Source of the DNA: Kiritimatiellia bacterium
GTDB taxonomy: Bacteria; Verrucomicrobiota; Kiritimatiellia; RFP12; UBA3636
Length of the DNA stretch: 64,000 nucleotides
Reading direction: 5' to 3'
Assembly: GCA_016295275.1 (NCBI GenBank)
Contig: JAEDLN010000001.1
Coordinates: 2,165-66,164 of the forward strand
The position numbers were made by a program, and so were the translations under genes. Each line of letters begins with the position of its first letter. The first letter of the stretch is position 1. Shown here one piece after another: positions 25,201-47,839 of the stretch. The notes beneath the pieces were generated by a model. That model searched no databases and was not told the origin of the DNA. It saw nothing but the letters and a program-made list of their open reading frames with translations.

Positions 25201-25790
25201 TGCGCTTGCGTCAGCTTTGCTGCCATTTGGCTCTCATCGATCCCGAAGAGGCCGATAAGGCCACTACGCCTTCCGACAAAATGGAGCATCTGTTCCAGAT
25301 CCTGGATGATGCGCTCTCGGAAAACCATCGTGTGCTGATCTTCTCGCAATTCACCAAAATGCTCTCTATTTTGCGCGAAGAGTTCATCAAACGAAAAATC
25401 CGTTTCTGCTATCTCGACGGGACGATGCGCTCCGTCGAACGAAACGAACAGGTCGAACAGTTCAACTCCGACTCTTCCATCCCAATTTTTCTGATTTCCA
25501 TCAAGGCCGGTGGAACAGGTCTCAATTTGACCGGGGCAGATGAAGTCATTCTCTACGACCCATGGTGGACCCCTGCGGTTGAAGAACAGGCAATCGCCCG
25601 TGCCCATCGTATCGGACAGCAAAATACCGTATACTCCGTACGGGTCATCGCGCAAGACACAATCGAGGAACGCGTTCTTCACCTGCAACGGCGAAAACGC
25701 GCAATCATCAATGCGACCATCAAGAGCGATGACGAAATGATGTCCAAGCTGACTTGGGCCGATGTCAAGAAGTTGCTGGATATTGAGTAA
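22245..25790 (+). CDS. SNF2-family helicase/ATPase with N-terminal SWIM zinc finger (paralog 1)
   Basis: SWIM CPCAASQRDGRICVHMLAAAIAL. SNF2 motifs LLADEMGLGKTFQ, VLDEAQNIKN, LTGTPIENSVADIWSIMDFLMPGYLG, and helicase C motifs LISIKAGGTGLNLTGADEVILYDPWWTPAVEEQAIARAHRIGQ. Confidence 0.9.
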   Translation: MMFWFRNPLLQKFDFTLENIRSWGGERQYLEALNQVTKKKSVLNPTYNDNIGEADIEHAGHTIHTRFRTFPGRRSVVENLCPCAASQRDGRICVHMLAAAIALEAAEREQRKAKTIENAQRALEKMGVLPKSPKPVSKQAPSASAGIPPVSVRTASPSPAPSQKAPRLRFYVPDDWVTRFDAGKIPVALSISADNTPHVFSLSDISSGKLIDSNTGLPVPFNPSDSERKLLFTLEHILYIPPDAATGKNLSLDCGQFFSLLERLSEVNEPFYPVHAEKPVYIRTKENAVHNILYVSLQEATGRIELALHIRFPGFPEDIFPRYLVYRNAKNWRNDCVYAFFNGVLWPIHTPIPFTYGEVYRNRTYLLRRDETIDFIQREIRGKLPCSGNLIPLRDILREDFNSTVDFSLFTTKPGRPRFSLDVNGSRASLSISLKASYSDIAVNFGNGDFNGKSNGLETKTCITIEVVGTESGQNFTIPDPNDNYIYYTRNHEAEQKALKHLREKISALLHIPQNAETLDNRALKTLTIVGDENVLNFLATTVPTLRNNGWDVTLSQGLTDYLSSLVTVAPRVKIVTFPRRHGFEISYTLASSDGKVVLPPEVFAKIDPDKSYTEFNGHQIVFDREAVRNLEEIIQECVSSRKKSATCGEARFLPDTYTHFIKSTIDDLSVSGITLESAPESWLKEADISTIRSNLEPVQLAEPARSLLRPYQATGVAWLRYLESKHQGGLLADEMGLGKTFQTLSWLSMPRVSGSKAPALVICPTSIVDNWKHECNHYIPGMRVMTMTGTKRHEDFAKIPDCNLVITSYALIRRDVEEYKKFNFSAIVLDEAQNIKNQNTLNARSVKQLDSNAARLVLTGTPIENSVADIWSIMDFLMPGYLGPYETFRRTYVEPLQGEESESELLQELCHRLREKVDPFMLRRLKTLVAKDLPPVIEKTSYCKLSPEQRIVYNRILEETRSAVTGSVREVGFERSRMIILTALLRLRQLCCHLALIDPEEADKATTPSDKMEHLFQILDDALSENHRVLIFSQFTKMLSILREEFIKRKIRFCYLDGTMRSVERNEQVEQFNSDSSIPIFLISIKAGGTGLNLTGADEVILYDPWWTPAVEEQAIARAHRIGQQNTVYSVRVIAQDTIEERVLHLQRRKRAIINATIKSDDEMMSKLTWADVKKLLDIE

Positions 25791-26091: not shown

Positions 26092-29000
26092 ATGGACATT
26101 TCCCATTCCAATTCTCGCCCTTTGCGCGAAACGTCGATCCCCTTTTCGTATACGGTCAACGATATCCGTTCCTGGGGCGATCAGGCCTCCTTCAATGCCG
26201 CCTTGCGAGCCGTCAATCGTGGGGATGTTCTCAATGCCGATTACGATGCAAAAACGCAAATCGGGTCCGGCGTCGTCAGTGCAAACGGAAACCTCGTAAA
26301 CGCTTCCTTCCAGCTCTGCAACTGGAAATACTGCAATGCCGAAAACCGGTGTTCGTGCCAAATCGGACAGACCGGTTCCATGTGCTTTCACACCCTGGCA
26401 ATTGCCATCAAGCTCGCTCGCTTGTACGAGGCGAAGACGGGCGCCGACCGGAAATCGGCAGATTCGAATCTCCCCACCGAAATCGATCTCCCAAAGCAGA
26501 CCGTCCTTCGCGATGCGAAAAACGGCGAACCGGTTTCCCTCGTCTTTGTCCTTCCGAAAAATTGGACAGAGCTCATGAACCAGCACAAGAGCGTATTGCT
26601 GGGCATCTACCTGACCCCACGACTCGCCTCCCCGAAATCATCCCCCACCGCTATTATCCATATCGAAAAGGCTATCCTCCTGAAACGCTCCCTGAGCCTC
26701 GAACATGAGGACGATATGATGCTGATGCTGCTCGAGGAAATGGCGGAAGGATCCCTGACAGGGGAATGTCGCGTAAACCCGTCTTCCCTCCTTTGGCTTT
26801 TGGACTACCTCGGGAATCTCGGACGCCCTATTTATCAAAGCGATATCATCGATTCGCCGACCAAGAACAAGGAGCGTCATGTCGTGAAATCGATCCAAGA
26901 GACGCTCCCGATTCGGATTCGGACGGAGGCGGATGCCTGCGAAACCTTTATTCGCTGCTCCTTCAACCCGTGTCTTCGTTCGATTGACGCATCAATCCAT
27001 GCCGATATTCCAGGCGTAATCCCGCCTCAAGAGATAACCTATATCGTGCCGGGCGGCGAAAAGGGATATGCCATAATCAACTCGACGGTCGAAACATCCG
27101 GCTATGCTTTCGAATTGATTCCTCTCAAAAGCATCCTGCCGATCGTTTTCCGGCAATTTTACATCAAGCCGATCCGCATCGATCCGTTGCACGTATACCG
27201 CTTCCTCAAATACGAACGCAATACCTTGCAAAACAGCCTCCCCGTCAAAATCGATCCGGAGGTCGAGTCGCTTTCCTGGACGCCGCTTTCTCCGCAATTC
27301 CTTCTAGAGGTCTCCATTCCGGAGCAGGAAACGCCTCCCAAAAACGGATGGCGTCCCTCTCCGGGAAATTTGCCCAATCGACTGTCCATCTGTCTGAAGG
27401 CATGCTACGAACCGTTTCCCGGAAAACAGCCAGCGCAAACCGTTGTTGCAGGATTCCCCGGATGCTATTTCTCCATTCCCGATCTGAACGATTCCTACCA
27501 CTATTTCATTCGGGATCTGGCCGCAGAGCAAAAGGGTCTGGAAATGCTCCGTTCTTTCGAAATCCCGGGGCAAACGGAAGATCATGCGGCAACACTCCTT
27601 CTGGAAGGTCAAGACCAAGTCCTCCACTTCCTCTCGACAACCGCTCCTCAAATCGAAGCGCTTCTCGGTTGGTCTGTCGATTTCTCCCCTACCCCGGCTC
27701 TCCATAAACTCGTTCAATCGTTCGAACGAATCGGAATTGAAGTCAAAATCAACGAGAGCAACGGAGACCTGCCGTCCGTTTTCAGCTTGACGGTTGCCTA
27801 TAAAACCGTCGGGAGAAGGCATTACGTCCCTGAAAAGGAAATCTTGGAAGCCGCTGCGGAAAATCGAACCTACCTGATTGACTACGGGCCGCATAAAAAA
27901 GAGCCTCGGCAACGTCCGGTCCAACCTAAAATTCAAATTTTCAACTCCGGTATCATTCAAGCCTTTCGGGATCTGGAACAGGAATGCCACGCATTTCGAA
28001 ATCCCCTTGATAAAGCCCAGACCATGAGCAATGGTTTTGCGCCTTTTGTGGTCAATCGAATCCGTCGACTGAAAAGCTCCGGTGTAACATTCGACACAAA
28101 CGCCTCCGCTTGGGTGCAAAAATACCTTCGCCCGTTCGAAACCTCCGAATCCGCAAAGGATCGTCAGGAAATACGCCGTCTCCTCCCTCGTATCCTCCGT
28201 CCCTACCAGCTGGAAGGCGTCCTTTGGCTCCGTTGGCTTGAACGAAACAATTTCGGCGGTATTTTGGCAGACGAAATGGGGCTTGGAAAAACCCTGCAGG
28301 CGCTTGCATGGATTTCCATGCGGAGAATCTACGAACCGCAAACGAAACGTCCCGTTCTTGTCGTTTGCCCGACCTCTCTCGTTCGAAATTGGGAGAGCGA
28401 AGCGCATCGATTTGTACCCCAACTCAAAACCCTCGTCCTTTCCGGCACCGATCGACACGATGTTTTCCGGTTGATTCCGGAATGCGATCTCGTCATTACC
28501 TCCTATGCGCTTCTTCGCCGGGACGTCGAACTGTACAATACGGTCCTGTTCTCCGCCTGTCTGCTCGACGAAGCCCAGAATATCAAGAACCGAGATACCG
28601 ATAACGCCACGAGCGTAAAGCAAATTCGGGCCCGCACCCGTATCGCCATTACGGGTACGCCAATCGAAAATTCCCTTGCAGATCTTTGGTCCATCTTTGA
28701 TTTTCTCATGCCGGGATATCTCGGAACCTACGCCGAATTTCATACCCGCTTCGAAATTCCGATCGCTCTCCGCCATAGCGAGGCCGCAAATCCTACCGAT
28801 ATCCGGGAAGCCGATATTCTCCTTTCCAAACTTCGGGATAAAACCGCCCCCTTCCTTCTCCGCCGTCTCAAAACAACCGTCGCTCAAGACCTTCCGGAAA
28901 AACTGGAACAAATCGTGCCGACCGAAATGACCGCCGATCAGCAAAAGGTCTATCGTTCGCTACAGGAACAGATCGGACGCAAAATTTCCGACTCCGTTTC

Positions 29001-29733
29001 CGAAAACGGCTTCGAACGCTCTCGCATGCTCATCCTTTCCGGTCTCTTGCGCCTCCGTCAGGCTGCCTGCCATCTTTCGCTGCTCGGCAATCTCAATCCG
29101 TATCCGAATTCGGAACATCCGTCCGGAAAACTTTCCCAGATGCTCTCGATTTTGGAAAATACCATCGCAAGCGGCCATCGCGTGCTCATTTTCTCCCAAT
29201 TCGTCGAGATGCTGCATCTGATTCGAGACGCATTGGACAAACGCGCAATCAAATACTGCTATCTGGATGGAACTTCCAAGGAAGAGGAACGTCTGGAGAA
29301 TGTTCGCCAGTTCAACTTTAACCACAAAATTCCCGTCTTTCTGATCTCTTTGAAGGCCGGCGGAACGGGACTTACGCTTACCGGGGCCGATGAAGTCATT
29401 CTCTTCGATCCTTGGTGGAATCCCGCCGCCGAACAACAGGCGATCGATCGAACCCATCGTATCGGTCAAACCCGTACCGTCCACGCAATTCGCCTCATCA
29501 CTCCCGGTACGGTCGAAGAAAAGGTGCGTCTCATGCAACAACGGAAGAGCGAAATCATCGCAGCGTCCATCGGTACGCCGGACGAATCCGCTCCTTCCGA
29601 GTCGGAAGCCATCACGAAAACCGATACCGAGACCGTCAACTCCCTCACCTGGAGCGATGTCCAGACGCTCTTCGACCTCCCCGATGCCACGCCAAAACCG
29701 GCTCCCGAATCCCACGCCGATCCGCACGCCTGA
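26092..29733 (+). CDS. SNF2-family helicase/ATPase with N-terminal SWIM zinc finger (paralog 2)
   Basis: SWIM CSCQIGQTGSMCFHTLAIAIKL. SNF2 motifs ILADEMGLGKTLQ, LLDEAQNIKN, ITGTPIENSLADLWSIFDFLMPGYLG, LISLKAGGTGLTLTGADEVILFDPWWNPAAEQQAIDRTHRIGQ. Confidence 0.9.
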   Translation: MDISHSNSRPLRETSIPFSYTVNDIRSWGDQASFNAALRAVNRGDVLNADYDAKTQIGSGVVSANGNLVNASFQLCNWKYCNAENRCSCQIGQTGSMCFHTLAIAIKLARLYEAKTGADRKSADSNLPTEIDLPKQTVLRDAKNGEPVSLVFVLPKNWTELMNQHKSVLLGIYLTPRLASPKSSPTAIIHIEKAILLKRSLSLEHEDDMMLMLLEEMAEGSLTGECRVNPSSLLWLLDYLGNLGRPIYQSDIIDSPTKNKERHVVKSIQETLPIRIRTEADACETFIRCSFNPCLRSIDASIHADIPGVIPPQEITYIVPGGEKGYAIINSTVETSGYAFELIPLKSILPIVFRQFYIKPIRIDPLHVYRFLKYERNTLQNSLPVKIDPEVESLSWTPLSPQFLLEVSIPEQETPPKNGWRPSPGNLPNRLSICLKACYEPFPGKQPAQTVVAGFPGCYFSIPDLNDSYHYFIRDLAAEQKGLEMLRSFEIPGQTEDHAATLLLEGQDQVLHFLSTTAPQIEALLGWSVDFSPTPALHKLVQSFERIGIEVKINESNGDLPSVFSLTVAYKTVGRRHYVPEKEILEAAAENRTYLIDYGPHKKEPRQRPVQPKIQIFNSGIIQAFRDLEQECHAFRNPLDKAQTMSNGFAPFVVNRIRRLKSSGVTFDTNASAWVQKYLRPFETSESAKDRQEIRRLLPRILRPYQLEGVLWLRWLERNNFGGILADEMGLGKTLQALAWISMRRIYEPQTKRPVLVVCPTSLVRNWESEAHRFVPQLKTLVLSGTDRHDVFRLIPECDLVITSYALLRRDVELYNTVLFSACLLDEAQNIKNRDTDNATSVKQIRARTRIAITGTPIENSLADLWSIFDFLMPGYLGTYAEFHTRFEIPIALRHSEAANPTDIREADILLSKLRDKTAPFLLRRLKTTVAQDLPEKLEQIVPTEMTADQQKVYRSLQEQIGRKISDSVSENGFERSRMLILSGLLRLRQAACHLSLLGNLNPYPNSEHPSGKLSQMLSILENTIASGHRVLIFSQFVEMLHLIRDALDKRAIKYCYLDGTSKEEERLENVRQFNFNHKIPVFLISLKAGGTGLTLTGADEVILFDPWWNPAAEQQAIDRTHRIGQTRTVHAIRLITPGTVEEKVRLMQQRKSEIIAASIGTPDESAPSESEAITKTDTETVNSLTWSDVQTLFDLPDATPKPAPESHADPHA

Positions 29734-30113: not shown

Positions 30114-32276
30114 TCATGCCATTTCCTGACCGCCCGGGGGCAGGGAAACGTTTCGTTCGGTACCGTCGGGCAATGTGATGGTTCCGGATTGCGTGTCGTT
30201 GGAGGAGTTTACGGCAATCATGCGCCCTGTCGTCGGGAAAAAGGCAACATCAATTGCAGGGTTGTCGGCCATCCACGGAATGCGTTCGCTCTCCCGCCCC
30301 GCCGCCCAAACGAGCGATTGCAGCAGGAGACGCGAATTTGAGCACGAATAGGGCAAGGAAGCAAAATAGACGGAACGCCCCTCCCCGTATACGTTCGCGG
30401 AACAGAGGATGTGTTTTCCCGCCGAAGCAAGCACGGTCGTAGCCGACGTACGCGGAAAGACGAAGGATTCGACGATTCCGAAATTCGCCGAATTCGCGGA
30501 CGCCGCCAACGAATGCGTTCGATCAATGGAAAACGACACCGGCACATTTTGGATACCGCGACCATCTTCATAGTCGACGCCAAGCACGTCGGCAAGGCGG
30601 AAGAAACGATCCGATGTGGGGTCGGCGGTGGGTCCGCGGCATCCGATGAAACCGCCTCCCTTTGCGACGAACGAGCGGACAGCCGAGGCAATTCTCTCAT
30701 CTCCCCACAGGTCGCCGCCGCTCCATGCGGTAAAGGCATCGCCATCGTTGATCAGAACATCGATGTCTGAAGGAACGCCATCGCGAATCTCCTCCATAGC
30801 GATAAAACGAACGGAAACTGGAAGCCCGGCGAGACACTCGAGGAGATTCGAACCGGCGACCTCCACGACATCCGTCCGCTTCTCAAAGAATTTCTGATCG
30901 CGACCGAAGCTGTTGATCCAGGCACGGGGCGTTCCCCATGCGTTGAGAACGCCGACACGAACCGGAATGTCGAGCGCCGGCGTACCTCCCGAGGTGTCGA
31001 GGATTTCACGGAATTGATCGCAAAGCGTCGCTACCCAATCGCAAAACGCTGGAAACTTCAGCGCTAACGAGGGATAGCCGCCCCAGCCAATGCGATCGAT
31101 CGGACGACGCAAAAGTGCACGACGAATCTTGAGCCAGTCGCCGCGCGACTCCGTCAACGGATCGCCGCCTTCCCGGAAGACGTCCGGAAAGAAGTAGGGG
31201 TACAGCCGGAGTTCCTTCGCCATGGTGCCCGGCGTATCCGACACCCGGCGCAACGCCACGCCATCCTCCGCCGCGCCGATATGAAGATCGATCCCCATTT
31301 TGGTGGGATTATCCGTGAAGGGTTCCAGACCGACCCAGTGATCGCCATGGAATACTGCCGCACGCTTCCCTGCCCGATGCACGCGCTGGCAGAGCTCACG
31401 GCCAAACCGCAACACGAATCGCTGGACGAACGACATCCAGTCACGCCAACGCGCTGAAGGTACGCCTCCGGTAGCATTGTTGCGGCCGGCATCCACAAAG
31501 TCCTCCGGCGTCAGACGATATCCGAATTGCGCCTCGAAATCATCCAACGCCTTCAGACTCACACATTCCTGATAGCCTGTCCAGTCTCGAAAAACATCCC
31601 GGCAATCGTGATCGAAGTCCACATTGAAGTGGTAGGCAAGAGACGTGAGTCGCACAATGGTCGTCTGAGGATGATCAGCCAACCAATTGTCGAAATATTC
31701 GAATAGGTAGTTCCAAACTTCCGGATAGTAGGGATCTACAGACCGGACGCGCTCGCGTGTCCATCCGTTGGTGAGGTGATTGTACATGCTTGTCGTGTCC
31801 CAGGCAACGGTGGCAAGGAAGGACACGGAATAGAGGTGCCCCGGACAGGCTCCAAGGACGCGAACCGCCTTTTTTGCGGGGTCGTAGACCCATTTCCCAT
31901 GTGGAACGGGAAGCTCCCCCGTCCGATCCATGACTTGCCAGAGGCTCGGTGTCGCGAGATCCTCGCGAATTTCGTACTTGAGCGGATGCAGACGTTCTAG
32001 AAGGGGAATTTCAAGCGTTTCCCCAAAGGCGGGCGCAGGGGTCGTCGACAGATACTTCATTGGCCAATATTCCGGATGGGCGCGCGTCCATTCCTCGTCG
32101 GCACGAACCAGACAAATTGTCGAATACACATCCAGTCCAAGCTCCAGCAGTTCGCTCGGCAGCGCGGTTCCATCGCAGTCGCGAACCGCATCCGCACCCC
32201 AGCGGCGAATCAGTTCGAGAGCAGATGCGCCCCCCCCCTTTTCAGTGGGCAAAGTAATGTGTCCTTTATGTTTCAC
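30114..32276 (-). CDS. 1,3-beta-galactosyl-N-acetylhexosamine phosphorylase (GH112 lacto-N-biose / galacto-N-biose phosphorylase)
   Basis: About 720 aa with colinear similarity to characterised GH112 LNBP: N-terminal KGHITLPTE, MYNHLTNGW, ALDDFEAQFGYRLTPEDFVDAG, FHGDHWVGLEPF, C-terminal TITLPDGTE. Confidence 0.8.
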   Translation of the reverse strand: MKHKGHITLPTEKGGGASALELIRRWGADAVRDCDGTALPSELLELGLDVYSTICLVRADEEWTRAHPEYWPMKYLSTTPAPAFGETLEIPLLERLHPLKYEIREDLATPSLWQVMDRTGELPVPHGKWVYDPAKKAVRVLGACPGHLYSVSFLATVAWDTTSMYNHLTNGWTRERVRSVDPYYPEVWNYLFEYFDNWLADHPQTTIVRLTSLAYHFNVDFDHDCRDVFRDWTGYQECVSLKALDDFEAQFGYRLTPEDFVDAGRNNATGGVPSARWRDWMSFVQRFVLRFGRELCQRVHRAGKRAAVFHGDHWVGLEPFTDNPTKMGIDLHIGAAEDGVALRRVSDTPGTMAKELRLYPYFFPDVFREGGDPLTESRGDWLKIRRALLRRPIDRIGWGGYPSLALKFPAFCDWVATLCDQFREILDTSGGTPALDIPVRVGVLNAWGTPRAWINSFGRDQKFFEKRTDVVEVAGSNLLECLAGLPVSVRFIAMEEIRDGVPSDIDVLINDGDAFTAWSGGDLWGDERIASAVRSFVAKGGGFIGCRGPTADPTSDRFFRLADVLGVDYEDGRGIQNVPVSFSIDRTHSLAASANSANFGIVESFVFPRTSATTVLASAGKHILCSANVYGEGRSVYFASLPYSCSNSRLLLQSLVWAAGRESERIPWMADNPAIDVAFFPTTGRMIAVNSSNDTQSGTITLPDGTERNVSLPPGGQEMA

Positions 32277-33740
32277 GTTTGTTTTTCTTCAAGTTTTTAC
32301 GGTTCGAAATGGAAAAGGGTCGTAGGATCATGCCATTCGCCGATTCGAATATCGCCGAATTCAACGATTTCGGCAAGGCGGAACGCAGTTTCTTCACGAC
32401 TGTCCATGTTGAACTGTTCGTTAGGCTTACAGGTTCCGGATGTGTAGTGGAACGGCTTGCCCGAGTTCTCCAAAAGAACCTTCCTCTCCCAAGGTCGGAA
32501 TGTGCGAGCATCTCGCCAATCCCCGTCATGTGAAGGAAACCTTGATCGAAGAAGAATGGAACCAAGTATACCGAAGATAGCCTTCGGTTCATAGCCTATT
32601 TTTCGATGTAGTGCCGAGAAGAGCCGAACGGTCAGCCTTCGGAAAGAAACTGACGCATCGGGATTGACGAAAACGGCGCTCGTGACTTTGTGATAACGAA
32701 GGCAAAATAGTGTGGGACGATTGTAACCTTGTTTTGGCAATGGAAAAGAAGCAGCCGAAAGTCCCCTGCTTGTTTTCCCCTCTCGCAGGAGACCCCTGCC
32801 GACATTGCTCGAAGAGGGGCTTTACGCTCTGATAGAGGCGCAAAGGAATGCATTTTCATCGGCTTACGGACATGAAAACAAAGTGAAACTCGTCCTGCCG
32901 ATTCTAATGGTCGGGAGAATTTGAAGCGTTGGCAAATGCGCACAGAACCGAATCATGACTGCGTATGAATAGATGCCCGCGGGCGAAAAGAATGACTGGC
33001 AACCATGTATCCGCCATTTGCAAAAACGCGCTAAAGAAGACGACGGTGAGATTCATTGGTCGGACGAAACCGCCGTCATGAATGCAGACGGTTGCGGCAG
33101 ATCGTACGCGCCCTCGCGACAAGTCTCCGCCGACCAAGACTCGTCGGCTTTATCTATGAATCTCTCCGTCGACAATCAGATGGAATGCTGTTGGATGATC
33201 GTCACCGAGACCTTTATTGCGAACGGACTGATCGAGTGCATGGGAAGCATCGAGAAGGACGTCGAGCGCAAGATTTTCCTTGTGATGGATAACCTCAAGG
33301 TTCATCATAGCAAACCGATAAACGAATGGTTCGAAACCCATGAACGGAGCCGGACGAGCGTCTATGCCAAATCTCACGCTCGCGATAACGACGACTGTTC
33401 CAAAGCGTGCGCAAAAAAGCACGCAAAGAAAAAGGAACGTCCGGCTACGGTGAAAGCTCCGCCAGACGGATAAAGTCAGTTTTCCAAAGACAGGCATGTT
33501 CGCCATGCCGCAGAATCAATGGGACTTATTGCCGGAGCAATATTGCATGGTTCTCATCCCGACTCGCGCCCGACCGTCATCCCATATGATGATACCGCAC
33601 GGCAGCTCGTGCCACCGCAGGTTACGCCCTTTTCCCTTTGACGCGTTTTCTGCGAAAAGACCTTGCGTGGACGAATGGAAAGGAGTATACTTAATGGCAC
33701 TAAAGTATTTTCGATCCTGACTGGGTCGTTTGGGAGTTTT
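32277..33740. other. Low-GC (AT-enriched) non-coding / decayed segment between GH112 and atpB
   Basis: Visibly lower GC than the flanks. Contains only unrecognisable ORFs and a transposase fragment. Confidence 0.5.
32973..33473 (+). mobile_element. IS630/Tc1-mariner family transposase remnant (C-terminal DDE domain fragment, no N-terminal HTH)
   Basis: IHWSDETAVMNADGCGRS ... FLVMDNLKVHHSKPINEWFETHE matches the IS630 DDE-domain pattern (I.F.DE...; ..DN...HKS..v.eWle). Only 166 aa with no HTH region, so likely a pseudogene. Confidence 0.5.
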
Positions 33741-33743
33741 TCT

Positions 33744-35045
33744 ATGACGAATACCGTTTACCATCGCATTGACGCTAGCTCCGGAAGTGTCGTAAGCCTT
33801 CGCGCCGAAGGTGTCAAATATCACGAATTGGCCGAAATCTCCTCTCGCGGAATCACTTCGTTGGCGCAGGTCATCAAGGTGGACGGCGACCATGTTTCCT
33901 TGCAAGTCTTCGCCGGTGCCCGCGGTATCGCAACCGACGCCCGTGTCCGTTTTCTCGGGCATTCCATGCAGGTTTCGGCAACCGACAACTTGCTCGGCCG
34001 CGTTTTCGACGGCGGCGGAAATCCCCGCGACAAAGGGCCTGCCCTTCAGGAAAATCTCATCGAAATCGGCGGTCCCTCCGTCAACCCCGCTAAGCGCATC
34101 ATTCCTCGTAACATGGTGCGTACGGGTATCCCGATGATCGATGTCTTCAACTCGCTGGTCGAAAGCCAAAAGCTCCCGATCTTCGCAAAGTCCGGCGAAC
34201 CCTACAACGAACTGCTTGCCCGAATCGCCCTCCAAGCGGAAACCGATGTCATCATCCTAGGCGGAATGGGGCTCAAGAATGATGACTACCTCTACTTCCG
34301 CGATACGCTCGACGCCTCCGGCGCCCTTTCCCGTACCGTCATGTTCGTCCATACGGCCGCCGATCCCGTCGTCGAATGCATGCTCGTTCCCGATCTGTCG
34401 CTCGCCGTCGCCGAACAATTCGCACTCAAAGGAAAGAAGGTGCTCGTCCTCCTGACCGATATGACGTCTTTCGCAGACGCTCTCAAGGAGGTCGCAATCA
34501 CCATGGAGCAAATCCCATCCAACCGCGGATACCCGGGAGACCTTTACTCGCAGCTCGCTGCCCGCTACGAAAAGGCGGTCGACTTCGAAGGTGCCGGTTC
34601 CATTACCATTCTTGCCGTCACGACAATGCCCGGCGGCGATGTCACCCACCCCGTGCCCGACAACACCGGCTATATTACGGAAGGCCAGTTCTACCTCTCC
34701 TCCGGTCATATCGAGCCCTTCGGATCCCTTTCCCGTCTCAAACAGCAGGTCAACAAAACGTCCCGCGCGGACCATCGCACGATCATGGATACCATGATCC
34801 AGCTCTTTGCCCAATATCGCTCCACCCTCGAAAAACAGTCGATGGGCTTCCGCATGACGACATGGGATGAAAAGCTTCTCAAGTACGGTCACCGGTTCGA
34901 AACCGAAATGATGGATATCTCCGTCAATATTCCCCTCGAAAAAGCCCTTGATCTCGGATGGGAAATCCTCGCAGACTGTTTCGATCCTTCCGAAACCGGC
35001 ATCCGCTCCGAAATGATTGAAAAGTACTGGCCGAAAAAGGCGTAA
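33744..35045 (+). CDS. atpB: V-type ATP synthase subunit B
   Basis: Motifs of the A/V-type non-catalytic B subunit ([63 protein letters not shown]). GGGAG RBS 8 nt upstream of the ATG at 33744. Confidence 0.9.
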
Positions 35046-35093
35046 ACCCGCTTCTCGACTCGACGCGCATCCTGTTAAGAGAGGAGTCCGCCA

Positions 35094-35729
35094 ATGGCAA
35101 AAGTAAAACTGACAAAAACGGAGTTGAAGGCCCAGAAAGATGCATTGGCCCGTTACCAGCGATTCCTGCCCATGCTCCAACTCAAGAAATCCCAGCTTCA
35201 GATGGAACTGCAGGGGATGCGTGCCCGCGCCGATGAAATCACCCGGCAACAGGAGGCTCTCCGAAAGGAAATGAATGCTTGGATCGGTCTTTTTGCAGAC
35301 GAATCCGCCAAAATCCCCCTGACCGTCGAAAAGGTCCGCCTTCACAGCGGTAATATCGCCGGTGTCGTTATCCCGATCTTCGATGGTATTGACGTGCATC
35401 GGGAGGAAATCGATTTGTTTGAAACCCCCGCCTGGATCGATGACGCTGCAGATGCCGCAGAACGCTTGATTGCGTTGCGCGCCGAACGGGACGTCGCTCT
35501 CCGCCAGGTCGAATTGATCGCCGAGGAACTCCGTACCACGTCCCAGCGCGTGAATCTCTTCGAAAAAGTGAAAATTCCGGAGTGCAAGGAAAACATCCGA
35601 GTGATCAATGTCGCAATCGGAGATGAACAAACCTCCGCCGTCGCCCGCGGTAAAATCGCAAAGGGACGTGGAAAAACCTCTCCCGAAACAGACGCGCCGT
35701 CGTCTCTAGAAAAGGAGGTCTCCAAATGA
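35094..35729 (+). CDS. atpD: V-type ATP synthase subunit D
   Basis: MAKVKLTKTELKAQKDALARYQRFLPMLQLKKSQLQ is the canonical V-ATPase D N-terminus. About 211 aa. Confidence 0.85.
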   Translation: MAKVKLTKTELKAQKDALARYQRFLPMLQLKKSQLQMELQGMRARADEITRQQEALRKEMNAWIGLFADESAKIPLTVEKVRLHSGNIAGVVIPIFDGIDVHREEIDLFETPAWIDDAADAAERLIALRAERDVALRQVELIAEELRTTSQRVNLFEKVKIPECKENIRVINVAIGDEQTSAVARGKIAKGRGKTSPETDAPSSLEKEVSK

Positions 35730-37609
35730 TCGTCCCATTGAAACAAGTAACGCTTTTCTGCCTGGAAAAGGATAAAAACGAAACGCTCGCACGGCTCGCA
35801 GATTTGGGAATGATTCACATCCTGACCGACGCCGCTGCCCCCGAGAGCCCCGGACGGACTCGCGCACATGATGATGCCGCAGCCGCCGAACGCGCCGTAA
35901 ATGCCATCCGGAGCGCCGCAGCCTTGAAGCCCGGACAAAGCCACACGCTCGCCCTTCGAAAGATTTCCGTTCGCTTGAATGGCACTACACCGGAACCGGT
36001 TCGCCGCGCGAATGCGCTCGCCGATGCCTGTTGCGAAGCGTCCGAAGAAGCCGATGCTCTCGACAAAACAATTGCCCGATACGCCCCGTTCGGTTCCTTC
36101 GATCCCTCTCTCGCACAAAACATCAAAAAACAAATCGGCCGATCCGTCTTTCTCTTTTCCGCTCCGGAAAAAATGGTGATGCCGACAGTCGAAGACGGAT
36201 GGGTCGATATTCTCTCCGCCAATGATTCCGAAAAGACCGTTTATGGTGTTTTCATCGGAAAATCACTCCCCGAGGGACTCGATCCAATCGCTCTTCCCGT
36301 CGAACCGCTCGACCGGACTCGCTCCCGGTTCAAAGAGGCAATGTGCCGCAAAATCAAGGCCGTGGAAGCACTCGCCGCCATGAAAAGCGAGCTTCCCGTA
36401 ATTGAAGAGGCCGCCAAATCCGCCGCCGAGGCAAATTCATTTGCACTCGCGCTTGAGGCCATGAAGGACGTCGGACCTATCGCTCATATCACCGGATATG
36501 TGGATGCCCGTAAGTGCGAAAAACTGCTTGAAGAAGCACGGGAACAAGGATGGGGTATCTTTCTCCGCGATCCGCTTCCCGAAGAAAATCCGCCGACCCT
36601 GCTCGAACCGCCGAAAGTTTTTCGTCCGGTTCTGGCAATCTTCAAGGGGCTTGGAATCTTGCCTTGCTACACGGAAACCGATATTTCCGTTCCCTTTTAC
36701 GCGTTTTTCACCATCTTCTTCGCTATGCTGATCGGCGATGCCGGGTACGGGGCAATCATCTTGGCGCTTACGTTTTTCGGCCACCGCTCTCTTAAAAAGA
36801 AGTTCGGCGTTAATATCCCGGAACTCGCCAAAGGCGCACTTACGCTTTTCTATGTCTTCAGCTTCGCGACGATCGCCTACGGACTCCTTACCGCTACCAT
36901 CTTCGGCATGCCGCAGACATGGCTCCCTGCCTCCTATGCGGCTCTTCCCGTCGTGCAGTGGTTCGCCGATATGAACAATGTGATGTTGCTCTGCTTCCTG
37001 CTTGGTGCCATCCATTTGTCGATTGCGCGTCTCTGGAATGCGGTCTCGCTCTTTCCCGATACGAAATTTCTCGCCGAAATCGGTTGGACCGGAATCGTTT
37101 GGAGCATGTTCTTTATCATCTCTTCTCTCGTTGTCAAAGGATTCCAACAACCGGCCTGCACCATCCCGTTGCTGGTTGTTTCAATCCTCCTGACAGCCCT
37201 GTTCATGCTCCACAGGAATGAGCTCAAGTCAAACGGGGTCAGCCTGGGGATGCTGCCGCTCAATATCATCTCTTCCATGGGCGATATCATTTCCTATCTG
37301 CGCCTCTACGCCGTTGGTCTCGCTTCCGTCAAAGTCGCGGAAAACTTCGATACTATGGCCGCAGGTATCGAGCTTCCGATCTATGCAAAAATTCCCGTCA
37401 TGATCCTCATTCTTGCCGCCGGCCACGCCATCAACTTCGCAATGGGCGGACTTTCCATCCTCGTCCATGCCGTGCGATTGAATACGTTGGAATTCTCGGG
37501 CGCAAAAGGGGTAACATGGGGCGGATATGAATTCCAATCCTTTACGGCCAAGAAACCGGACTCCCTGCCGGAGCTGGAAAACGCTCTTCCGAACGGAAGC
37601 AAAGCATAA
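35726..37609 (+). CDS. atpI: V-type ATP synthase subunit I (a-subunit, 116 kDa type)
   Basis: ATGA overlap with atpD. N-terminal cytoplasmic domain plus C-terminal multi-TM domain, 627 aa, consistent with V-ATPase I. Confidence 0.8.
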   Translation: MIVPLKQVTLFCLEKDKNETLARLADLGMIHILTDAAAPESPGRTRAHDDAAAAERAVNAIRSAAALKPGQSHTLALRKISVRLNGTTPEPVRRANALADACCEASEEADALDKTIARYAPFGSFDPSLAQNIKKQIGRSVFLFSAPEKMVMPTVEDGWVDILSANDSEKTVYGVFIGKSLPEGLDPIALPVEPLDRTRSRFKEAMCRKIKAVEALAAMKSELPVIEEAAKSAAEANSFALALEAMKDVGPIAHITGYVDARKCEKLLEEAREQGWGIFLRDPLPEENPPTLLEPPKVFRPVLAIFKGLGILPCYTETDISVPFYAFFTIFFAMLIGDAGYGAIILALTFFGHRSLKKKFGVNIPELAKGALTLFYVFSFATIAYGLLTATIFGMPQTWLPASYAALPVVQWFADMNNVMLLCFLLGAIHLSIARLWNAVSLFPDTKFLAEIGWTGIVWSMFFIISSLVVKGFQQPACTIPLLVVSILLTALFMLHRNELKSNGVSLGMLPLNIISSMGDIISYLRLYAVGLASVKVAENFDTMAAGIELPIYAKIPVMILILAAGHAINFAMGGLSILVHAVRLNTLEFSGAKGVTWGGYEFQSFTAKKPDSLPELENALPNGSKA

Positions 37610-37655
37610 CCATTTCACTCTTTCATAAACAAATTCCACTAAGGAGTAACTAATC

Positions 37656-38138
37656 ATGAGTCCCGAAATCAACACCGCACTGGGTATCGCCGGTGCCGTT
37701 ATCGCCCTTGGTCTGAGTGCTTTCGGTTCCGCACTCGGAACCGGAAAAGCCGCAGCATCCGCTATCGGTGCGTGGAAAAAGTGCTTTGCACAAGGAAAGC
37801 AGGCCCCCTTCGTTTTGCTTTCCTATGTCGGCGCCCCCATTACCCAAACCCTCTACGGCATGATCCTCATGTTCAAGATGGTCGGTACCGCCCAGGATCC
37901 GAATGCGCTTCCCGGAACCGGTATCGCACTCGTCATCCTCGGACTCTTTGCCGGCATCGCCATCGGAACCTCGGCTTTCTTGCAGGGGCTCGCCGCCGCA
38001 GGTGCCGCCGATTCCCAGGCGGAAACTGGCAACGGTCTCGCCAACAACATGTCCGCCCTCGGCATCGTCGAAACGACTGCGATCTTCGCCATGGTCTTTA
38101 CCTATTTGGCCGTTGGCAATCTCGTTGCCGACGCATAA
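37656..38138 (+). CDS. atpK: V-type ATP synthase subunit K (proteolipid c-ring)
   Basis: 160 aa, four hydrophobic helices, Gly/Ala-rich ALGIAGAVIALGLSAFGSALGTG pattern. Confidence 0.8.
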   Translation: MSPEINTALGIAGAVIALGLSAFGSALGTGKAAASAIGAWKKCFAQGKQAPFVLLSYVGAPITQTLYGMILMFKMVGTAQDPNALPGTGIALVILGLFAGIAIGTSAFLQGLAAAGAADSQAETGNGLANNMSALGIVETTAIFAMVFTYLAVGNLVADA

Positions 38139-42939: not shown

Positions 42940-43293
42940 TGCAAAATCACTGCATACAATCGAACACACTTGGTTGCTGTCCGAACTTTTTCTCGCTGTT
43001 CCCACACGCCTTTTTCCCTTGCTTTCGCCACTTCCCTTCTTCTGTTCGTCACGACCCAAATTCGGAAATGCCAAGACTTAAAAGACTCGGAAAATCAAAT
43101 CGAGTAATTTTGAGCCGTCCGGTGTCTTTCAGAAGCGCCCGTAAATGCATAGAAAGGCTTGCTGTGTCCTTTGAAATGCACCCTTGTATCTTCTACTTTT
43201 TTTACGCCTTTTCCTTGCTAGAAAAGGCTGTTTTTGATAGACTGGACCAAAAGAAGCAAATCGCGCAAACACAAGACCTATTCTGATTTTCAA

Positions 43294-45498
43294 ATGACAG
43301 ACTCGGCAACTGTTTTACACGCCCAAAAGCGATCGAAATTCATTACGATCCGATCCCTCTTTTTCGGATTTTTGGGGATCTTTTTCATTGCGGGAACTGC
43401 CAAGTTCCACGACAATGTCTTGATGGGAACCTACCTGATCGGCAATCAGCTTCCGCCGGCGGCGTTTTTCTATCTGTGCCTCATTGGACTCGGATGGAAC
43501 GGTATGTGGATTTTGCTCGATCGCCTGTTTAAGGCTGAACATCGGCTTTCCGATGCGCTCGCGCTTTCGGCCAAGGAAATCGCAGTTGCATTTGCCATGA
43601 CGCTCGTCGCCTGCTGGGCTCCGACCTCTGGTCTCTGCCGCTATTTCCATACCCAAATCATGATGCCTTGGTACTTCCTCAGCAACCACCAAAGCTGGGA
43701 GGTTCATGGCTTGTTGACCGAATATCTGCGTCCGGAACTCTTCCCTTCCCCTTGGCCCGGAAACCCCGACGTCCTTTCGGATCCCGCCTACGAACGGGTC
43801 TATCGCGGCTTTTTCACGGGATTGGCAAAGGGCACCGAGACGCTCTCCATCCTTCAGCTTCCCCTTCGCGCTTGGATTGCTCCCATGCTGATTTGGGGGC
43901 CGTTCCTGACTTTGTTTGCCTTGACCTTGATTTCCATCCAATTCCTGGTGCACCGCCAGTGGGCCTCCCATGAACAAATCGCCTACCCGATTGCACAGGT
44001 GACCGGTCAACTCTTTCAGATGAGCGACGAGCGCAAGCATGTTCCCGGCATTTTCCGCAATCGGCTTTTCTGGTGGGGCGTCCTTCCGATTTTCGTCTTG
44101 TTGATGATCGAGTATCTCGCCAAATGGTTCCCGGAAACAGTCCCCGCCCTCTCCACGTTCCTTCCCAACCTAAAGGGCTGGTGGGTGCCCCTGTACACGC
44201 ACATGCCCATCATCAAAAAGGTCTATAACTACGGGGCGCTTCAGGGGCAAACCATCTTCTTCACATTCGTCGGCATTGCCTACTTCGTGAGCTCCGAAGT
44301 CTCCCTCTCCGTCGGTCTCTCCTACTTCCTGCTTGCCATCTTCTCCATCGGCTACTGGCAGACGACGGGAACCATCATCGACGGATCGGTCATGGAAAGC
44401 CTTCGCGGCGGCGCCTTTACCGGCTTCTTCTTCATTCTGGTCTTTACCGGCCGTTCGTATTTCAAGGCCGTCTTTGCTACTGCGTTTGGCATCCGAATCA
44501 GGAAACGAGCGAAAGCGGATGCGGATGCCTCGCAAGAAGAAAAAGACTTGGCGACTCCCGATGAAGTCTCCGTTCTTGCCGCCCGCGTTATGATCGTCAC
44601 GTTCATCGGGTTTGTGATCCTCTTTTCTTGGATGTGCCAATCTTGGCTCATTGCACTCGTTTTCTCCCTGCTGCTGTTTATGCTCTATACGGTGTTTTCC
44701 CGTATGGTCAGCGAAACGGGCATTCCCTTCCTCCAATCCGGTTGGACACCCGGATCGTTGCTGGTCTATTTGCTGGGCCCCGCCGCAATCGGACCGCACG
44801 CCTTGACCTATATCCTCTGGGCCGGAAACAACATCTTGACGCCCGACCCGCGCGAGGCGCTGATCGGGTACGTCTCCACCGGTGTCAAGATTGCCGATGA
44901 CAACCGCCTGAATCTCAAAAAAATCTTTCTCTGGATCTGCATCGCCGCTCTGGTCGCCATGGTCATCGGTTGGTTCGCCGCTTCTTGGGTTATCTACAAC
45001 TACAACCCGACGGGCGACGCTTGGGCACACGCATATCCGCCCGTCACTCCATTCGATTATTCCGCTCGCCTTTTCGCGGATATGAAAGCGGCCGGCACCT
45101 TTGCCGCTTCCGAGGCGGCCTCCCCGATCGCCCGCTTGGGCATGATTTCCGGCTCTGCCTTGAAGACGCACTACTTCTTCTATGGCATTATCGCAATTAT
45201 CCTGCTTTCTACCATTCGTTTTCGCTTCGCCAAATTCCCCCTCCATCCGATTCTGATCCTGATGGCCGGCACCTATCCCGCTGCGGCCGCATGGTCCTCC
45301 TTCTTGATCGGTTGGTTCATCAAACAGCTGATCGTACGTTTCGGCGGAGGCGGCGTCTATCAACGGTTCAAGCCCCTCTTCATCGGCATCATCGCCGGTG
45401 AAATTCTAACCATCGGGTTGACCATCGTCGTCGATTTTGCCTACTACATCATCGTAGGTTCGCCATCGCCTGTCCGCGTCAACTTTATGCCAGGCTAA
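43294..45498 (+). CDS. Large polytopic membrane protein of unknown function (paralog A, ~735 aa)
   Basis: At least 12 hydrophobic segments and a charged loop RIRKRAKADADASQEEK. C-terminal region FLIGWFIKQLIVRFGGGGVYQRFKPLFIGIIAGEIL resembles the C-terminus of the 53076..55082 product. Confidence 0.6.
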   Translation: MTDSATVLHAQKRSKFITIRSLFFGFLGIFFIAGTAKFHDNVLMGTYLIGNQLPPAAFFYLCLIGLGWNGMWILLDRLFKAEHRLSDALALSAKEIAVAFAMTLVACWAPTSGLCRYFHTQIMMPWYFLSNHQSWEVHGLLTEYLRPELFPSPWPGNPDVLSDPAYERVYRGFFTGLAKGTETLSILQLPLRAWIAPMLIWGPFLTLFALTLISIQFLVHRQWASHEQIAYPIAQVTGQLFQMSDERKHVPGIFRNRLFWWGVLPIFVLLMIEYLAKWFPETVPALSTFLPNLKGWWVPLYTHMPIIKKVYNYGALQGQTIFFTFVGIAYFVSSEVSLSVGLSYFLLAIFSIGYWQTTGTIIDGSVMESLRGGAFTGFFFILVFTGRSYFKAVFATAFGIRIRKRAKADADASQEEKDLATPDEVSVLAARVMIVTFIGFVILFSWMCQSWLIALVFSLLLFMLYTVFSRMVSETGIPFLQSGWTPGSLLVYLLGPAAIGPHALTYILWAGNNILTPDPREALIGYVSTGVKIADDNRLNLKKIFLWICIAALVAMVIGWFAASWVIYNYNPTGDAWAHAYPPVTPFDYSARLFADMKAAGTFAASEAASPIARLGMISGSALKTHYFFYGIIAIILLSTIRFRFAKFPLHPILILMAGTYPAAAAWSSFLIGWFIKQLIVRFGGGGVYQRFKPLFIGIIAGEILTIGLTIVVDFAYYIIVGSPSPVRVNFMPG

Positions 45499-47065: not shown

Positions 47066-47839
47066 ATGATTACGTTCAACGAAGAAGAATACGCCGTCGG
47101 AAAGGAAGTGCTGGTGTCGGTCCACGACATCAAACGCGTCTTTTGGCGTGGCACGGAACCCGTTCATGCGCTCGATGGCATTTCGCTCAATATCTACCGC
47201 GGCGAATATATCTGCGTCATGGGTCCTTCCGGCTCCGGAAAATCGACCTTTTTCAATATGGTGGGCGGCTTGGATACCCCGACAGCCGGACGGGTATTCA
47301 TCGATGGCGTCGATATGGCGCAGCTCAACGCCGAGGAACTGGCATTCCTCCGTTGCCGCAAGATCGGGTACGTCTTTCAGCAGTTCAACCTCAATACGGT
47401 GATGACGGCCCTCGAAAACGTGACCCTTCCAATGGTCTTCGCCGGTGTCTCCGCAGATGAAGCCCGTGCCCGCGGAATGGCTCTCTTGGATCGCGTCGGA
47501 CTCGGTTCCCGCTGGAACCATCGTCCAAAGGAAATGTCCGGCGGCCAAATGCAACGCGTCGCAATCGCACGCTCGCTCGCCAACAATCCATCTATTCTCC
47601 TGTGCGACGAACCGACCGGAAACCTGGACTTGAAAACCGGCAAGGAAATCCATTTGCTCCTGCACGATTTGAACAAAAACGACGGTGTAACCGTCATCTG
47701 CGCAACACACGACCCGAATATGCTCTCCGTGTCGTCTCGCATGGTCTGGATCTGCGATGGAAAAATCGACCGAATCGCCGAATCCAAACACGTTAAGATT
47801 GAAAAAGACTCTTTGGGCATCGAGGAAGAAGATGAATAA
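47066..47839 (+). CDS. ABC transporter ATP-binding protein (MacB/LolD/FtsE type)
   Basis: Walker A GPSGSGKST, signature MSGGQMQRVAIARSL, Walker B LLCDEPTGNLD. Confidence 0.9.
   Translation: MITFNEEEYAVGKEVLVSVHDIKRVFWRGTEPVHALDGISLNIYRGEYICVMGPSGSGKSTFFNMVGGLDTPTAGRVFIDGVDMAQLNAEELAFLRCRKIGYVFQQFNLNTVMTALENVTLPMVFAGVSADEARARGMALLDRVGLGSRWNHRPKEMSGGQMQRVAIARSLANNPSILLCDEPTGNLDLKTGKEIHLLLHDLNKNDGVTVICATHDPNMLSVSSRMVWICDGKIDRIAESKHVKIEKDSLGIEEEDE

Follow-up and report, generated by a model that had tools for sequence, protein, structure and literature searches.

Gene content and layout of the locus

The genes of the chlamydia/spirochaete-type V/A-ATPase are organized as a single operon, atpE-hyp-atpA-atpB-atpD-atpI-atpK, in Chlamydia trachomatis (CT304-310), Borrelia (BB0090-0096), and Treponema pallidum. 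This contiguous E-x-A-B-D-I-K order is not found in the window, by which we mean the whole stretch of 64,000 nucleotides analyzed here; the locus begins with atpB, next to the remnant of an insertion element. How the gene for the catalytic A subunit came to be missing is the question that this arrangement raises, and the comparisons described below indicate that its absence is due to an old operon split common to related species, and not to recent transposon damage.

Gene content and coordinates confirm the predicted order atpB-atpD-atpI-atpK (Table 1), and profile matches confirm that an IS630-type transposase fragment and an opposite-strand GH112 gene lie upstream of atpB. The GH112 gene, which also matches the Pfam families Lact_bio_phlase, LBP_M, and LBP_C, is an unrelated upstream neighbor transcribed divergently from atpB. 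The GC content of the intervening segment is only mildly low (50.1% for positions 32277-33743); the window as a whole has 54.7%, and the regions next to the spacer have 55-58%. Searches with tblastn, using as queries the AtpB of the window and the E, DUF2764, and A proteins of two canonical relatives, detect neither genes nor remnants of atpA, atpE, or DUF2764 in the 64 kb. The absence of A and E that had been noted is therefore borne out, but that of C and F is not a loss, given that canonical relatives, in which E and DUF2764 lie 5' of A, have no C or F genes either. As a result, only E, DUF2764, and A count as missing.

Table 1. Features of the atpB-atpD-atpI-atpK locus and its upstream region (window coordinates)
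Feature	Position	Strand	Basis or remark
GH112 1,3-beta-galactosyl-N-acetylhexosamine phosphorylase (galacto-N-biose/lacto-N-biose phosphorylase)	30114..32276	-	TIGR02336, 807 bits
Spacer, non-coding, 1.47 kb	32277..33743	.	Between GH112 and atpB; holds transposase fragment
IS630-family (DDE_3) transposase fragment, pseudogene	32973..33473	+	166-aa ORF; recognizable part ~33021-33347
Candidate sigma-70-type promoter, TTGCGT-17 nt-TATACT	33663..33691	+	Read from sequence, inferred
Shine-Dalgarno-like GGGAG	33732..33736	+	7 nt 5' of atpB ATG
atpB, non-catalytic B subunit of V1, 433 aa	33744..35045	+	NF002555 equivalog
atpD, central-stalk D subunit, 211 aa	35094..35729	+	NF002565; Pfam ATP-synt_D
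atpI, Vo stator a/I subunit, 627 aa	35726..37609	+	NF004429 full-length; Pfam V_ATPase_I C-terminus
atpK, c-ring proteolipid, 160 aa	37656..38138	+	NF005174

Integrity of the ATPase genes

Three of the four predicted subunits pass the equivalog cut-offs of their families, as expected for a chlamydia/spirochaete-type enzyme: AtpB scores 739 bits against NF002555 (cut-off 431), with residues 3-432 aligned to positions 2-433 of 436, AtpD scores 227 bits against NF002565 (cut-off 189), and AtpK scores 152.8 bits against NF005174 (cut-off 127). AtpI aligns with NF004429 from end to end (residues 1-610 on positions 1-607 of 608), yet reaches only 303 bits relative to a cut-off of 799, and its match to Pfam V_ATPase_I (33.4 versus a threshold of 30.7) is confined to the C-terminus. 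On this basis the four genes are predicted to encode subunits B and D of V1 and subunits I and K of Vo. The locus differs from the chlamydial and spirochaetal operons in having no E-DUF2764-A upstream; the ATPase proteins themselves are ordinary. The conserved, catalytically essential arginine in SY[LV]RL[YF]AVG and the VRLNTLEF motif of AtpI are intact, as is the equally essential ion-binding glutamate of AtpK, located within G[IV][IV]ET in the last helix and likewise conserved. The start of atpI overlaps the stop of atpD by 4 nt. The listed atpB reading frame opens at an upstream TTG (33663), and the length of 433 residues is counted from the ATG. A public contig collection lists the identical AtpB protein in 53 blocks, and the named homologues belong to Kiritimatiellia, Lentisphaerae, or Ca. 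Spyradenecus.

All four genes are intact and under strong purifying selection. Within the species, atpB has a dN of 0 at a dS of 0.06-0.09, dN/dS is 0.03-0.10 for atpD and atpI, and atpK gives 0.17-0.35, a value derived from a handful of substitutions. Between species, dN/dS for atpB is about 0.05, with dS saturated, and B-D-I-K contains zero frameshifts or stops across more than 10 strain contigs. These data bear on the possibility that the ATPase is being lost, atpA having already gone from the genome and B-D-I-K being remnants that are turning into pseudogenes. Such a process would account for the lack of A in the 64 kb, and for the progressive scattering of the genes in related species, some of which have B alone, or B-D-I without K, at the locus. 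It is nevertheless very unlikely in light of the low dN/dS values, the undamaged reading frames and functional residues, and the presence of intact B-less E-x-A modules in related gut contigs. The V-type ATP synthase of Kiritimatiella glycovorans has been described as forming, together with Rnf, the chemiosmotic system for ATP synthesis (PMC5148204), a role that would make loss of A costly.

The junction in other strains

Ten or more independent contigs from ENA and Logan, with about 98% nucleotide identity, have the order SNF2-SNF2-GH112(-)-spacer-B-D-I-K, although the contig of one strain (L009) has lost GH112 through a 2.76 kb deletion. An apparent 240 bp deletion in a second strain (L006) proved to be an N-gap in the scaffold. 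IS remnants are classic points at which assemblies break or are joined, and this N-gap falls within the spacer, so that the junction might be thought to be a metagenomic misassembly in which a repeated IS element fused unrelated regions. That explanation is exceedingly improbable, however, because the same junction recurs in the 10 or more contigs, which come from different samples, assemblers, and sources and carry strain-level SNPs spanning the junction; the same junction in so many independent metagenome assemblies excludes an assembly artifact. In addition, the IS fragment is single-copy in the window and, in the fetched loci, is found only at the locus of this species.

The break between atpA and atpB is shared by related species

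Distant Kiritimatiellia with AtpB 80-82% identical to that of the window (L011 and L012) have the canonical E-DUF2764-A-B-D-I-K arrangement, as do most of 80 JGI metagenome loci, and the B-D-I-K order and tight spacing seen in the window match those of the canonical loci. In contrast, no atpA is present upstream of atpB in any of the closer relatives examined (86-90% identity in AtpB; six lineages with upstream sequence). The upstream neighbor is different in each of these relatives, and the remaining genes occur as B-D-I-K, B-D-I, or B alone: B-D-I lies between rpsL(-) and RdgC in L014, B alone lies between GlcNAc-2-epimerase and DAGK in L013 and between PRTase and NYN in L016, and B-D-I-K is found in L017, L124, and L121, the last with only 49 bp of upstream sequence. 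L124 and L121 correspond to the GTDB representatives CASEAR01 and CAMVRE01, respectively. The atpB clade of the window (P0001-P0035) is monophyletic. Because the break is common to all sampled close relatives, the split is ancestral to the clade, and the saturated synonymous divergence among the species with this break indicates that it predates the species studied here. Comparison of synteny with close relatives, which the original prediction had proposed as a check, reveals the A|B break in all those sampled and the canonical order in more distant Kiritimatiellia.

The IS630 fragment

Only the central DDE_3 region of an IS630/Tc1-mariner transposase is recognizable in the fragment. Residues 27-127 of its reading frame match Pfam DDE_3 (E=4.5e-10), and the match to NCBIfam transpos_IS630, which extends from position 136 to 249 of the 299 in the profile, scores 48.5 bits (cut-off 100); at about 38% of the transposase, the fragment is far from full length. 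Joining adjacent reading-frame fragments gave no longer match, which leaves the presence of N- and C-terminal parts of the transposase unsupported. Unlike intact members of the family, the fragment has no detectable inverted repeats, the search for terminal repeats returning only short imperfect pairs of 12-19 nt, none of which convincingly brackets it, and its frame is broken by frameshifts that differ from strain to strain. Copies are found only at the loci of this species among those fetched. The rest of the spacer has no protein family match, scans of the region give no Rfam match and no tRNA, and alignment between strains requires 1-55 gap positions in the spacer compared to zero in the flanking genes. 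Judging from its sequence, the fragment is a decaying relic and not a mobile element.

The original prediction was that insertion or rearrangement had split the operon. A split between A and B is indeed what we observe, but disruption by IS630 is not supported, since the break predates the species while the fragment is specific to it and already decaying. For a recent, species-level IS630 insertion or IS-mediated rearrangement to have cut A from B and stranded B-D-I-K, perhaps without a promoter, one could cite the position of the fragment 270 bp 5' of atpB, the slightly lower GC content of the spacer, and the presence of an unrelated, opposite-strand GH112 neighbor that is missing from one strain contig. 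Against these stand the six other lineages, which are separated by saturated synonymous divergence and also have no A upstream, and the fetched flanks of all six, which contain no IS630 fragment. The degenerate and polymorphic state of the fragment and the unrelaxed constraint on B-D-I-K argue in the same direction. Such a recent event is consequently very improbable, being largely refuted by the shared break.

Candidate promoter and translation start of atpB

It had also been suggested that B-D-I-K might be without a local promoter. This now seems doubtful given the -35/-10-like pair and the Shine-Dalgarno motif that lie between the IS630 remnant and atpB. Both hexamers are invariant in the eight strain sequences, the variable positions here being confined to their 17-nt spacer, and the Shine-Dalgarno motif reads GGGAG in six of the eight and AGGAG in the other two. 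A consensus scan for promoters and terminators gave match counts no higher than shuffled expectation, and passed over the TTGCGT/TATACT pair because the -35 hexamer matches the consensus at only 3 of 6 positions. Most likely, B-D-I-K is driven by its own candidate promoter, situated in the ~80 nt of spacer just before atpB. In the canonical loci L011 and L012, atpB overlaps the stop of atpA by 8 nt, whereas in the window atpB appears to head the transcription unit and has a putative Shine-Dalgarno sequence of its own, from which it is most likely translated in place of coupling to atpA.

The E-DUF2764-A half of the operon

E-DUF2764-A modules that are not followed by B occur in many gut and rumen contigs, including pig-gut loci, and fall into two atpA lineages in which no B is present within 1-6 kb downstream. 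In the lineage with AtpA of 573-576 residues, all five sampled species have E-x-A without a downstream B (L047, L082, L183, L192, and L194); L195, from a pig metagenome, represents the same locus as L194. The tetranucleotide composition of L183 and L194 shows the highest correlation with that of the window (0.91-0.92), compared to 0.75 or less for loci of similar GC content from the other atpA clade. Their GC content (0.58 versus 0.55 for the window) and GC3 are both higher, however, and they probably belong to a sister species, for which the P0019 lineage is a candidate, and not to the species of the window. Correlation of mirror-tree distance vectors does not discriminate between the two B-less lineages as partner of the window's atpB clade. 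The best 120 matches to a consensus of the clade with AtpA of 586-598 residues belong mostly to one abundant lineage, and comparison of samples and assembly accessions gave no overlap linking A and B loci among those compared. A chimeric-alignment scan of a genome collection with an atpA fragment joined to the window's atpB had the useful loci L121 and L124 among the matches listed, which were dominated by canonical A-B loci. The AtpA pattern [TG]SRWAQAM is specific among the Kiritimatiellia sequences compared and common in spirochaetes. GC contents are 64.5% for P0208, which is from pig gut, and 41% for P0393.

The alternative raised in the original prediction, with A and E encoded elsewhere in this lineage, is consistent with both the shared break and the B-less E-DUF2764-A loci, and atpA is probably located elsewhere in the window's own genome. 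A variant of this arrangement would have E-x-A-B1 at one locus and B2-D-I-K at the present one, with the two B copies diverged in role. This idea draws on a long-branch atpB clade (L037, L061, L070, L076, L094, and L178), the members of which are 76% identical to the window's AtpB and lie directly 3' of atpA at loci without D, and on the intermixing of A-only and A-B1 loci in the atpA tree. B1-type proteins, however, co-vary strongly with the 586-598-residue AtpA clade, their co-variation with the other B-less lineage is poor, the pig-gut B1 locus L178 belongs to another organism as judged by its GC content (64.5%, compared to 54.7% for the window), and no contig or genome among those seen has both types of B. 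Duplication of B is therefore unlikely.

Probable history of the locus

The explanation that we consider probable is that of an ancestral split, followed by retention of the ATPase with E-DUF2764-A encoded elsewhere and by later arrival of IS630. The host is an uncultured pig-gut member of the class Kiritimatiellia (PVC group), in which positions 33744-38138 would represent the intact, expressed half of a V/A-ATPase. The physical atpA-atpB link would have been lost from E-DUF2764-A-B-D-I-K in an ancestor that this species has in common with several related ones, and repeated reshuffling would then have generated the B-D-I-K, B-D-I, and B-only forms with their different neighbors. Throughout, the complex itself would have been kept, with the E-DUF2764-A module transcribed separately from another locus. 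The IS630 fragment would derive from a later, species-specific insertion upstream of atpB that is now a decaying pseudogene. This insertion was not the cause of the A|B break, but may have contributed to the most recent rearrangement at the locus. We infer this order of events, as we do the position of the promoter.

Relation to other split ATPase operons

Rotary ATPase genes are split into two atp operons in cyanobacteria and chloroplasts, and A-type genes are scattered in Nanoarchaeum. As in those systems, a multi-subunit rotary ATPase would remain functional despite separate transcription units, but the enzyme here is of the bacterial V/A type, and the break points vary among close species (A|B, B|D, and I|K). 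A literature search found no paper on such split ATPase gene sets in Kiritimatiellia. For annotation, the consequence is that a "missing atpA" beside an IS relic in these genomes should not be taken as evidence of a defective ATPase or of gaps in a pathway, and completeness or metabolic calls that depend on gene order would erroneously list these gut Kiritimatiellia as having no ATP synthase. The clade arranges the genes of one essential complex in several independent ways, and could serve to study how subunit stoichiometry is maintained in the absence of co-transcription or translational coupling.

More tentatively, gut and rumen Kiritimatiellia might be dismantling the V/A-ATPase operon stepwise, with cassettes entering at A|B and B|D, rearrangements scattering the pieces, and all subunits remaining under purifying selection; we regard this as a real possibility. 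If true, these species would form a natural series for studying the assembly of a stoichiometric rotary machine in which neither a common operon nor translation couples the subunits. As many as three or four loci would then hold the pieces (E-x-A | B | D-I | K). The cassettes in question are small, selfish or defense-like, and comprise an AAA_21 ATPase with DUF3226, ORF6N with a DNA methylase, YhcG nuclease, and 23S_rRNA_IVP genes.

Gene content of the window

The ORF list, profile searches and tblastn confirmed, coordinates included, that an atpB-atpD-atpI-atpK block (B-D-I-K) begins at B beside an IS630 remnant. There is nothing unusual about the window ATPase proteins themselves, whose type is already known, with NF002555, NF002565 and NF005174 being NCBIfam equivalogs for the chlamydia/spirochaete-type V/A-ATPase. 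No E, DUF2764 or A gene was found within the 64 kb by tblastn with queries from two canonical relatives, and tblastn with atpB gave no second copy over the same 64 kb, the sole extra signal being the expected weak A-to-B cross-match. The segment upstream of atpB, predicted to be low in GC, is indeed lower, but only mildly so (50.1% for the spacer versus 54.7% for the window), and the spacer region contains no Rfam family and no tRNA. A small PspC-like ORF follows atpK, and then pgsA, truA and a purine-nucleoside phosphorylase gene.

The tandem SNF2-family helicases are full-length paralogues (1181 and 1213 aa), parts of whose 3' regions still share ~65-70% DNA identity. Elsewhere, the window encodes a 781-aa protein in which a Na+/H+ exchanger domain is fused to a C-terminal PTS EIIA-2 domain (19784-22129), a 754-aa DUF6785/DUF6784 protein whose position is conserved across all strain contigs (43234-45498), and a 1736-aa ORF whose sole Pfam match is one FtsX-like permease domain near the C-terminus (47757-52967).

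Features of the window, and cassettes at ATPase gene junctions in other fetched contig loci (L-numbers)
Feature	Coordinates	Strand	Basis or description
SNF2 helicase gene 1	22245-25790	+	ORF list and profile searches
SNF2 helicase gene 2, in tandem with gene 1	26092-29733	+	ORF list and profile searches
GH112 galacto-N-biose/lacto-N-biose phosphorylase	30114-32276	-	ORF list and profile searches
Spacer, GH112 to atpB	32277-33743		1,467 bp
IS630 transposase fragment	32973-33473		166-codon ORF; model positions 136-249 of 299; 48.5 bits, under the cut-off (100)
-35-like TTGCGT	33663-33668		between IS630 fragment and atpB; read from sequence
-10-like TATACT	33686-33691		17 nt after TTGCGT; read from sequence
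Shine-Dalgarno motif GGGAG			7 nt before atpB ATG
atpB	33744-35045	+	NF002555, 739 bits, above curated cut-off
atpD	35094-35729	+	NF002565, 227 bits, above curated cut-off
atpI	35726-37609	+	NF004429 aligned end to end, score under cut-off
atpK	37656-38138	+	NF005174, 153 bits, above curated cut-off
AAA_21/AAA_15 ATPase + DUF3226	L025:3948-5599		A/B junction
ORF6N + N6_N4 DNA methylase	L028:5575-7384		A/B junction
YhcG/DUF1016 PDDEXK nuclease	L059:7786-8871		A/B junction
23S_rRNA_IVP	L059:10221-10607		B/D junction
23S_rRNA_IVP	L011:11401-11733		B/D junction

The A/B break in relatives

Two loci with atpB 80-82% identical to that of the window, L011 (Ca. Spyradenecus) and L012, have the order E-DUF2764-A-B-D-I-K (E, 191-208 aa; DUF2764, 174-180 aa; A, 577-580 aa), with the atpB start overlapping the atpA stop by 8 nt. 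Of 80 atpA loci retrieved from JGI metagenomes, most also have this order. Named atpB homologues belong to MAGs of Kiritimatiellia, Kiritimatiellae, Lentisphaerae or Ca. Spyradenecus. In L012, rnf genes lie directly 3' of atpK; V-type ATP synthase and Rnf have been described as a chemiosmotic ATP-synthesising system in the cultured Kiritimatiella glycovorans (PMC5148204).

Every closer relative examined lacks atpA 5' of atpB, and the upstream neighbour differs in each. The atpB sequences of the window and these relatives (proteins P0001-P0035) fall in one clade of a neighbour-joining tree, and synonymous sites are saturated between the window and the closer-relative species. Because this clade shares the A/B break at such divergence, the break is old and lineage-wide, and the ATPase gene pieces have been relocated repeatedly since. 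Such fragmented, variable V/A-ATPase gene organisation appears to be undescribed in the literature for this lineage, though variation of this kind is known.

Gene context of atpB in closer relatives
Locus	atpB identity to window	Upstream	ATPase genes	Downstream
L014/L015	90%	rpsL (-)	B-D-I; no K	RdgC
L013	87%	GlcNAc-2-epimerase	B alone	DAGK
L016	88%	phosphoribosyltransferase	B alone	NYN, DAGK
L017, L188-L191	87%	hypothetical	B-D-I-K	
L124 (GTDB representative)	87%	no A in 10 kb	B-D-I-K	
L121 (GTDB representative)	90%	49 bp of sequence only	B-D-I-K	

The junction across strains and the IS630 fragment

The index of a public contig collection lists the exact window atpB protein in 53 blocks, and ten of these places, drawn from different ENA and Logan samples, were read. 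Their DNA is ~98% identical, and the order SNF2-SNF2-GH112(-)-spacer-B-D-I-K is kept throughout, with GH112 mostly deleted in one contig (L009). The recurrence of this order in ten contigs rules out misassembly; the GH112-spacer-atpB junction is real and fixed in the species. L009 lacks window positions 30327-33088, a 2.76 kb deletion that takes most of GH112 together with the 5' portion of the IS630 fragment, with its junction at a short GCAGCAG microhomology; this may reflect either genuine strain variation or a collapse during assembly. Record names for two loci related to that of the window read 'pig gut metagenome' or 'pig metagenome', and the study tags XIAO16 and GAIO21 on samples of the window species denote pig-gut studies.

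The IS630 ORF, the sole recognisable feature of the spacer, corresponds to ~38% of a transposase, and no convincing terminal repeats were found for it. The window has one copy of it, and of all loci fetched only those of this species carry it; its reading frame is disrupted differently by strain (called ORFs of 92-187 aa, or none). To judge from this pattern, the fragment is a decaying relic younger than the A/B break, although it may have contributed to the most recent rearrangement here. The original prediction favoured disruption of the operon by insertion or rearrangement; as a recent IS-linked event this reading is not supported, the break being shared with relatives and the relic being younger, and its own alternative, a lineage-typical split, is supported instead.

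Constraint on atpBDIK and a candidate promoter

Between strains of the window species, atpB has 0 non-synonymous changes at a dS of 0.06-0.09, and dN/dS is 0.03-0.10 for atpD and atpI and 0.17-0.35 for atpK, the last resting on very few substitutions; in comparisons between species, atpB gives a dN/dS of ~0.05. There are no indels in the atpBDIK block among strains, compared with 1-55 gap positions in the spacer. The proteolipid glutamate in G[IV][IV]ET and the stator arginine in SY[LV]RL[YF]AVG are conserved. On these patterns, all four genes appear to be in use. Within the A3B3 head of V/A-ATPases, B partners A but is itself non-catalytic, and given the purifying constraint on atpB we therefore infer that atpA is encoded elsewhere in the window's own genome.

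The TTGCGT and TATACT boxes form a candidate promoter of B-D-I-K. Both are invariant across eight strain sequences; from the promoter to the Shine-Dalgarno motif, variation among these is confined to the 17 nt between the boxes and to the first base of the motif. TATAAT-like boxes are also found 40-90 nt upstream of atpB in relatives whose neighbouring genes differ. The promoter assignment is hypothetical, because a consensus promoter scan did not report the pair and found sites no more numerous than in shuffled sequence.

E-DUF2764-A loci without atpB

Two atpA lineages among the JGI loci show E-DUF2764-A with atpB absent from both strands within 1-6 kb downstream: a large clade (586-598 aa), some members of which instead have E-DUF2764-A-B without D, and a second lineage of 573-576 aa (L047, L082). 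Profile search and contig look-ups added three further species to the latter, all without B downstream of E-DUF2764-A. Downstream of atpA, L183/L184 have, in order, a 126-aa ORF, a XerD-like recombinase gene and lnt(-), a synteny shared by L194/L195 (L195 being from a pig metagenome); in L192/L193, the gene after atpA encodes an ABC substrate-binding protein. Of the small ORF and XerD-like tyrosine recombinase gene directly 3' of atpA (L183:9120-10079; L194:11764-13036), the latter may be the housekeeping xerD or be linked to the rearrangement.

Tetranucleotide correlation with the window is highest in L183 and L194 (0.91-0.92), compared with 0.96-0.98 for chunks inside the window, 0.59-0.79 for other atpB loci of its clade, and at most 0.75 for loci from the other atpA clade with comparable GC. 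Their GC of 0.58 and atpA GC3 of 0.72-0.74 are, however, closer to the P0019/L017 species (GC 0.58, atpB GC3 0.75) than to the window (0.55 and 0.68), and we take these loci to be the partner locus of a sister species, rather than the window's own. In a mirror-tree test, atpB genes adjoining atpA co-vary with the large 586-598 aa clade; the window's atpB clade gave no discriminating match to either B-less lineage.

Other rearranged operons

The cassettes in L025, L028, L059 and L011 sit exactly at gene junctions of otherwise canonical Kiritimatiellia V-ATPase operons, and in L031 (581-7687) the order is A-B-D-I-K-E-DUF2764, E and DUF2764 having moved to the operon end. These arrangements suggest that break-up may begin with cassette insertion at a gene junction, separation following afterwards. 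A second type of split, in which E-DUF2764-A-B lacks a downstream atpD, occurs in L037, L061, L070, L076, L094 and L178 (e.g. L178:1504-5729), and the atpB of such loci forms a separate long-branch clade, 76% identical to that of the window. The atpA tree does not separate A-only from A-B loci, which mix even at ~90% atpA identity; this may reflect paralogy or repeated breaks. Adjacent A-B pairs with an SRWAQAM motif are also present in MAGs labelled Eggerthellaceae, Lachnospiraceae, Bacteroidaceae and Clostridium sp. CAG:452 (L101, L108, L130, L147), and could be due to binning contamination or horizontal transfer.
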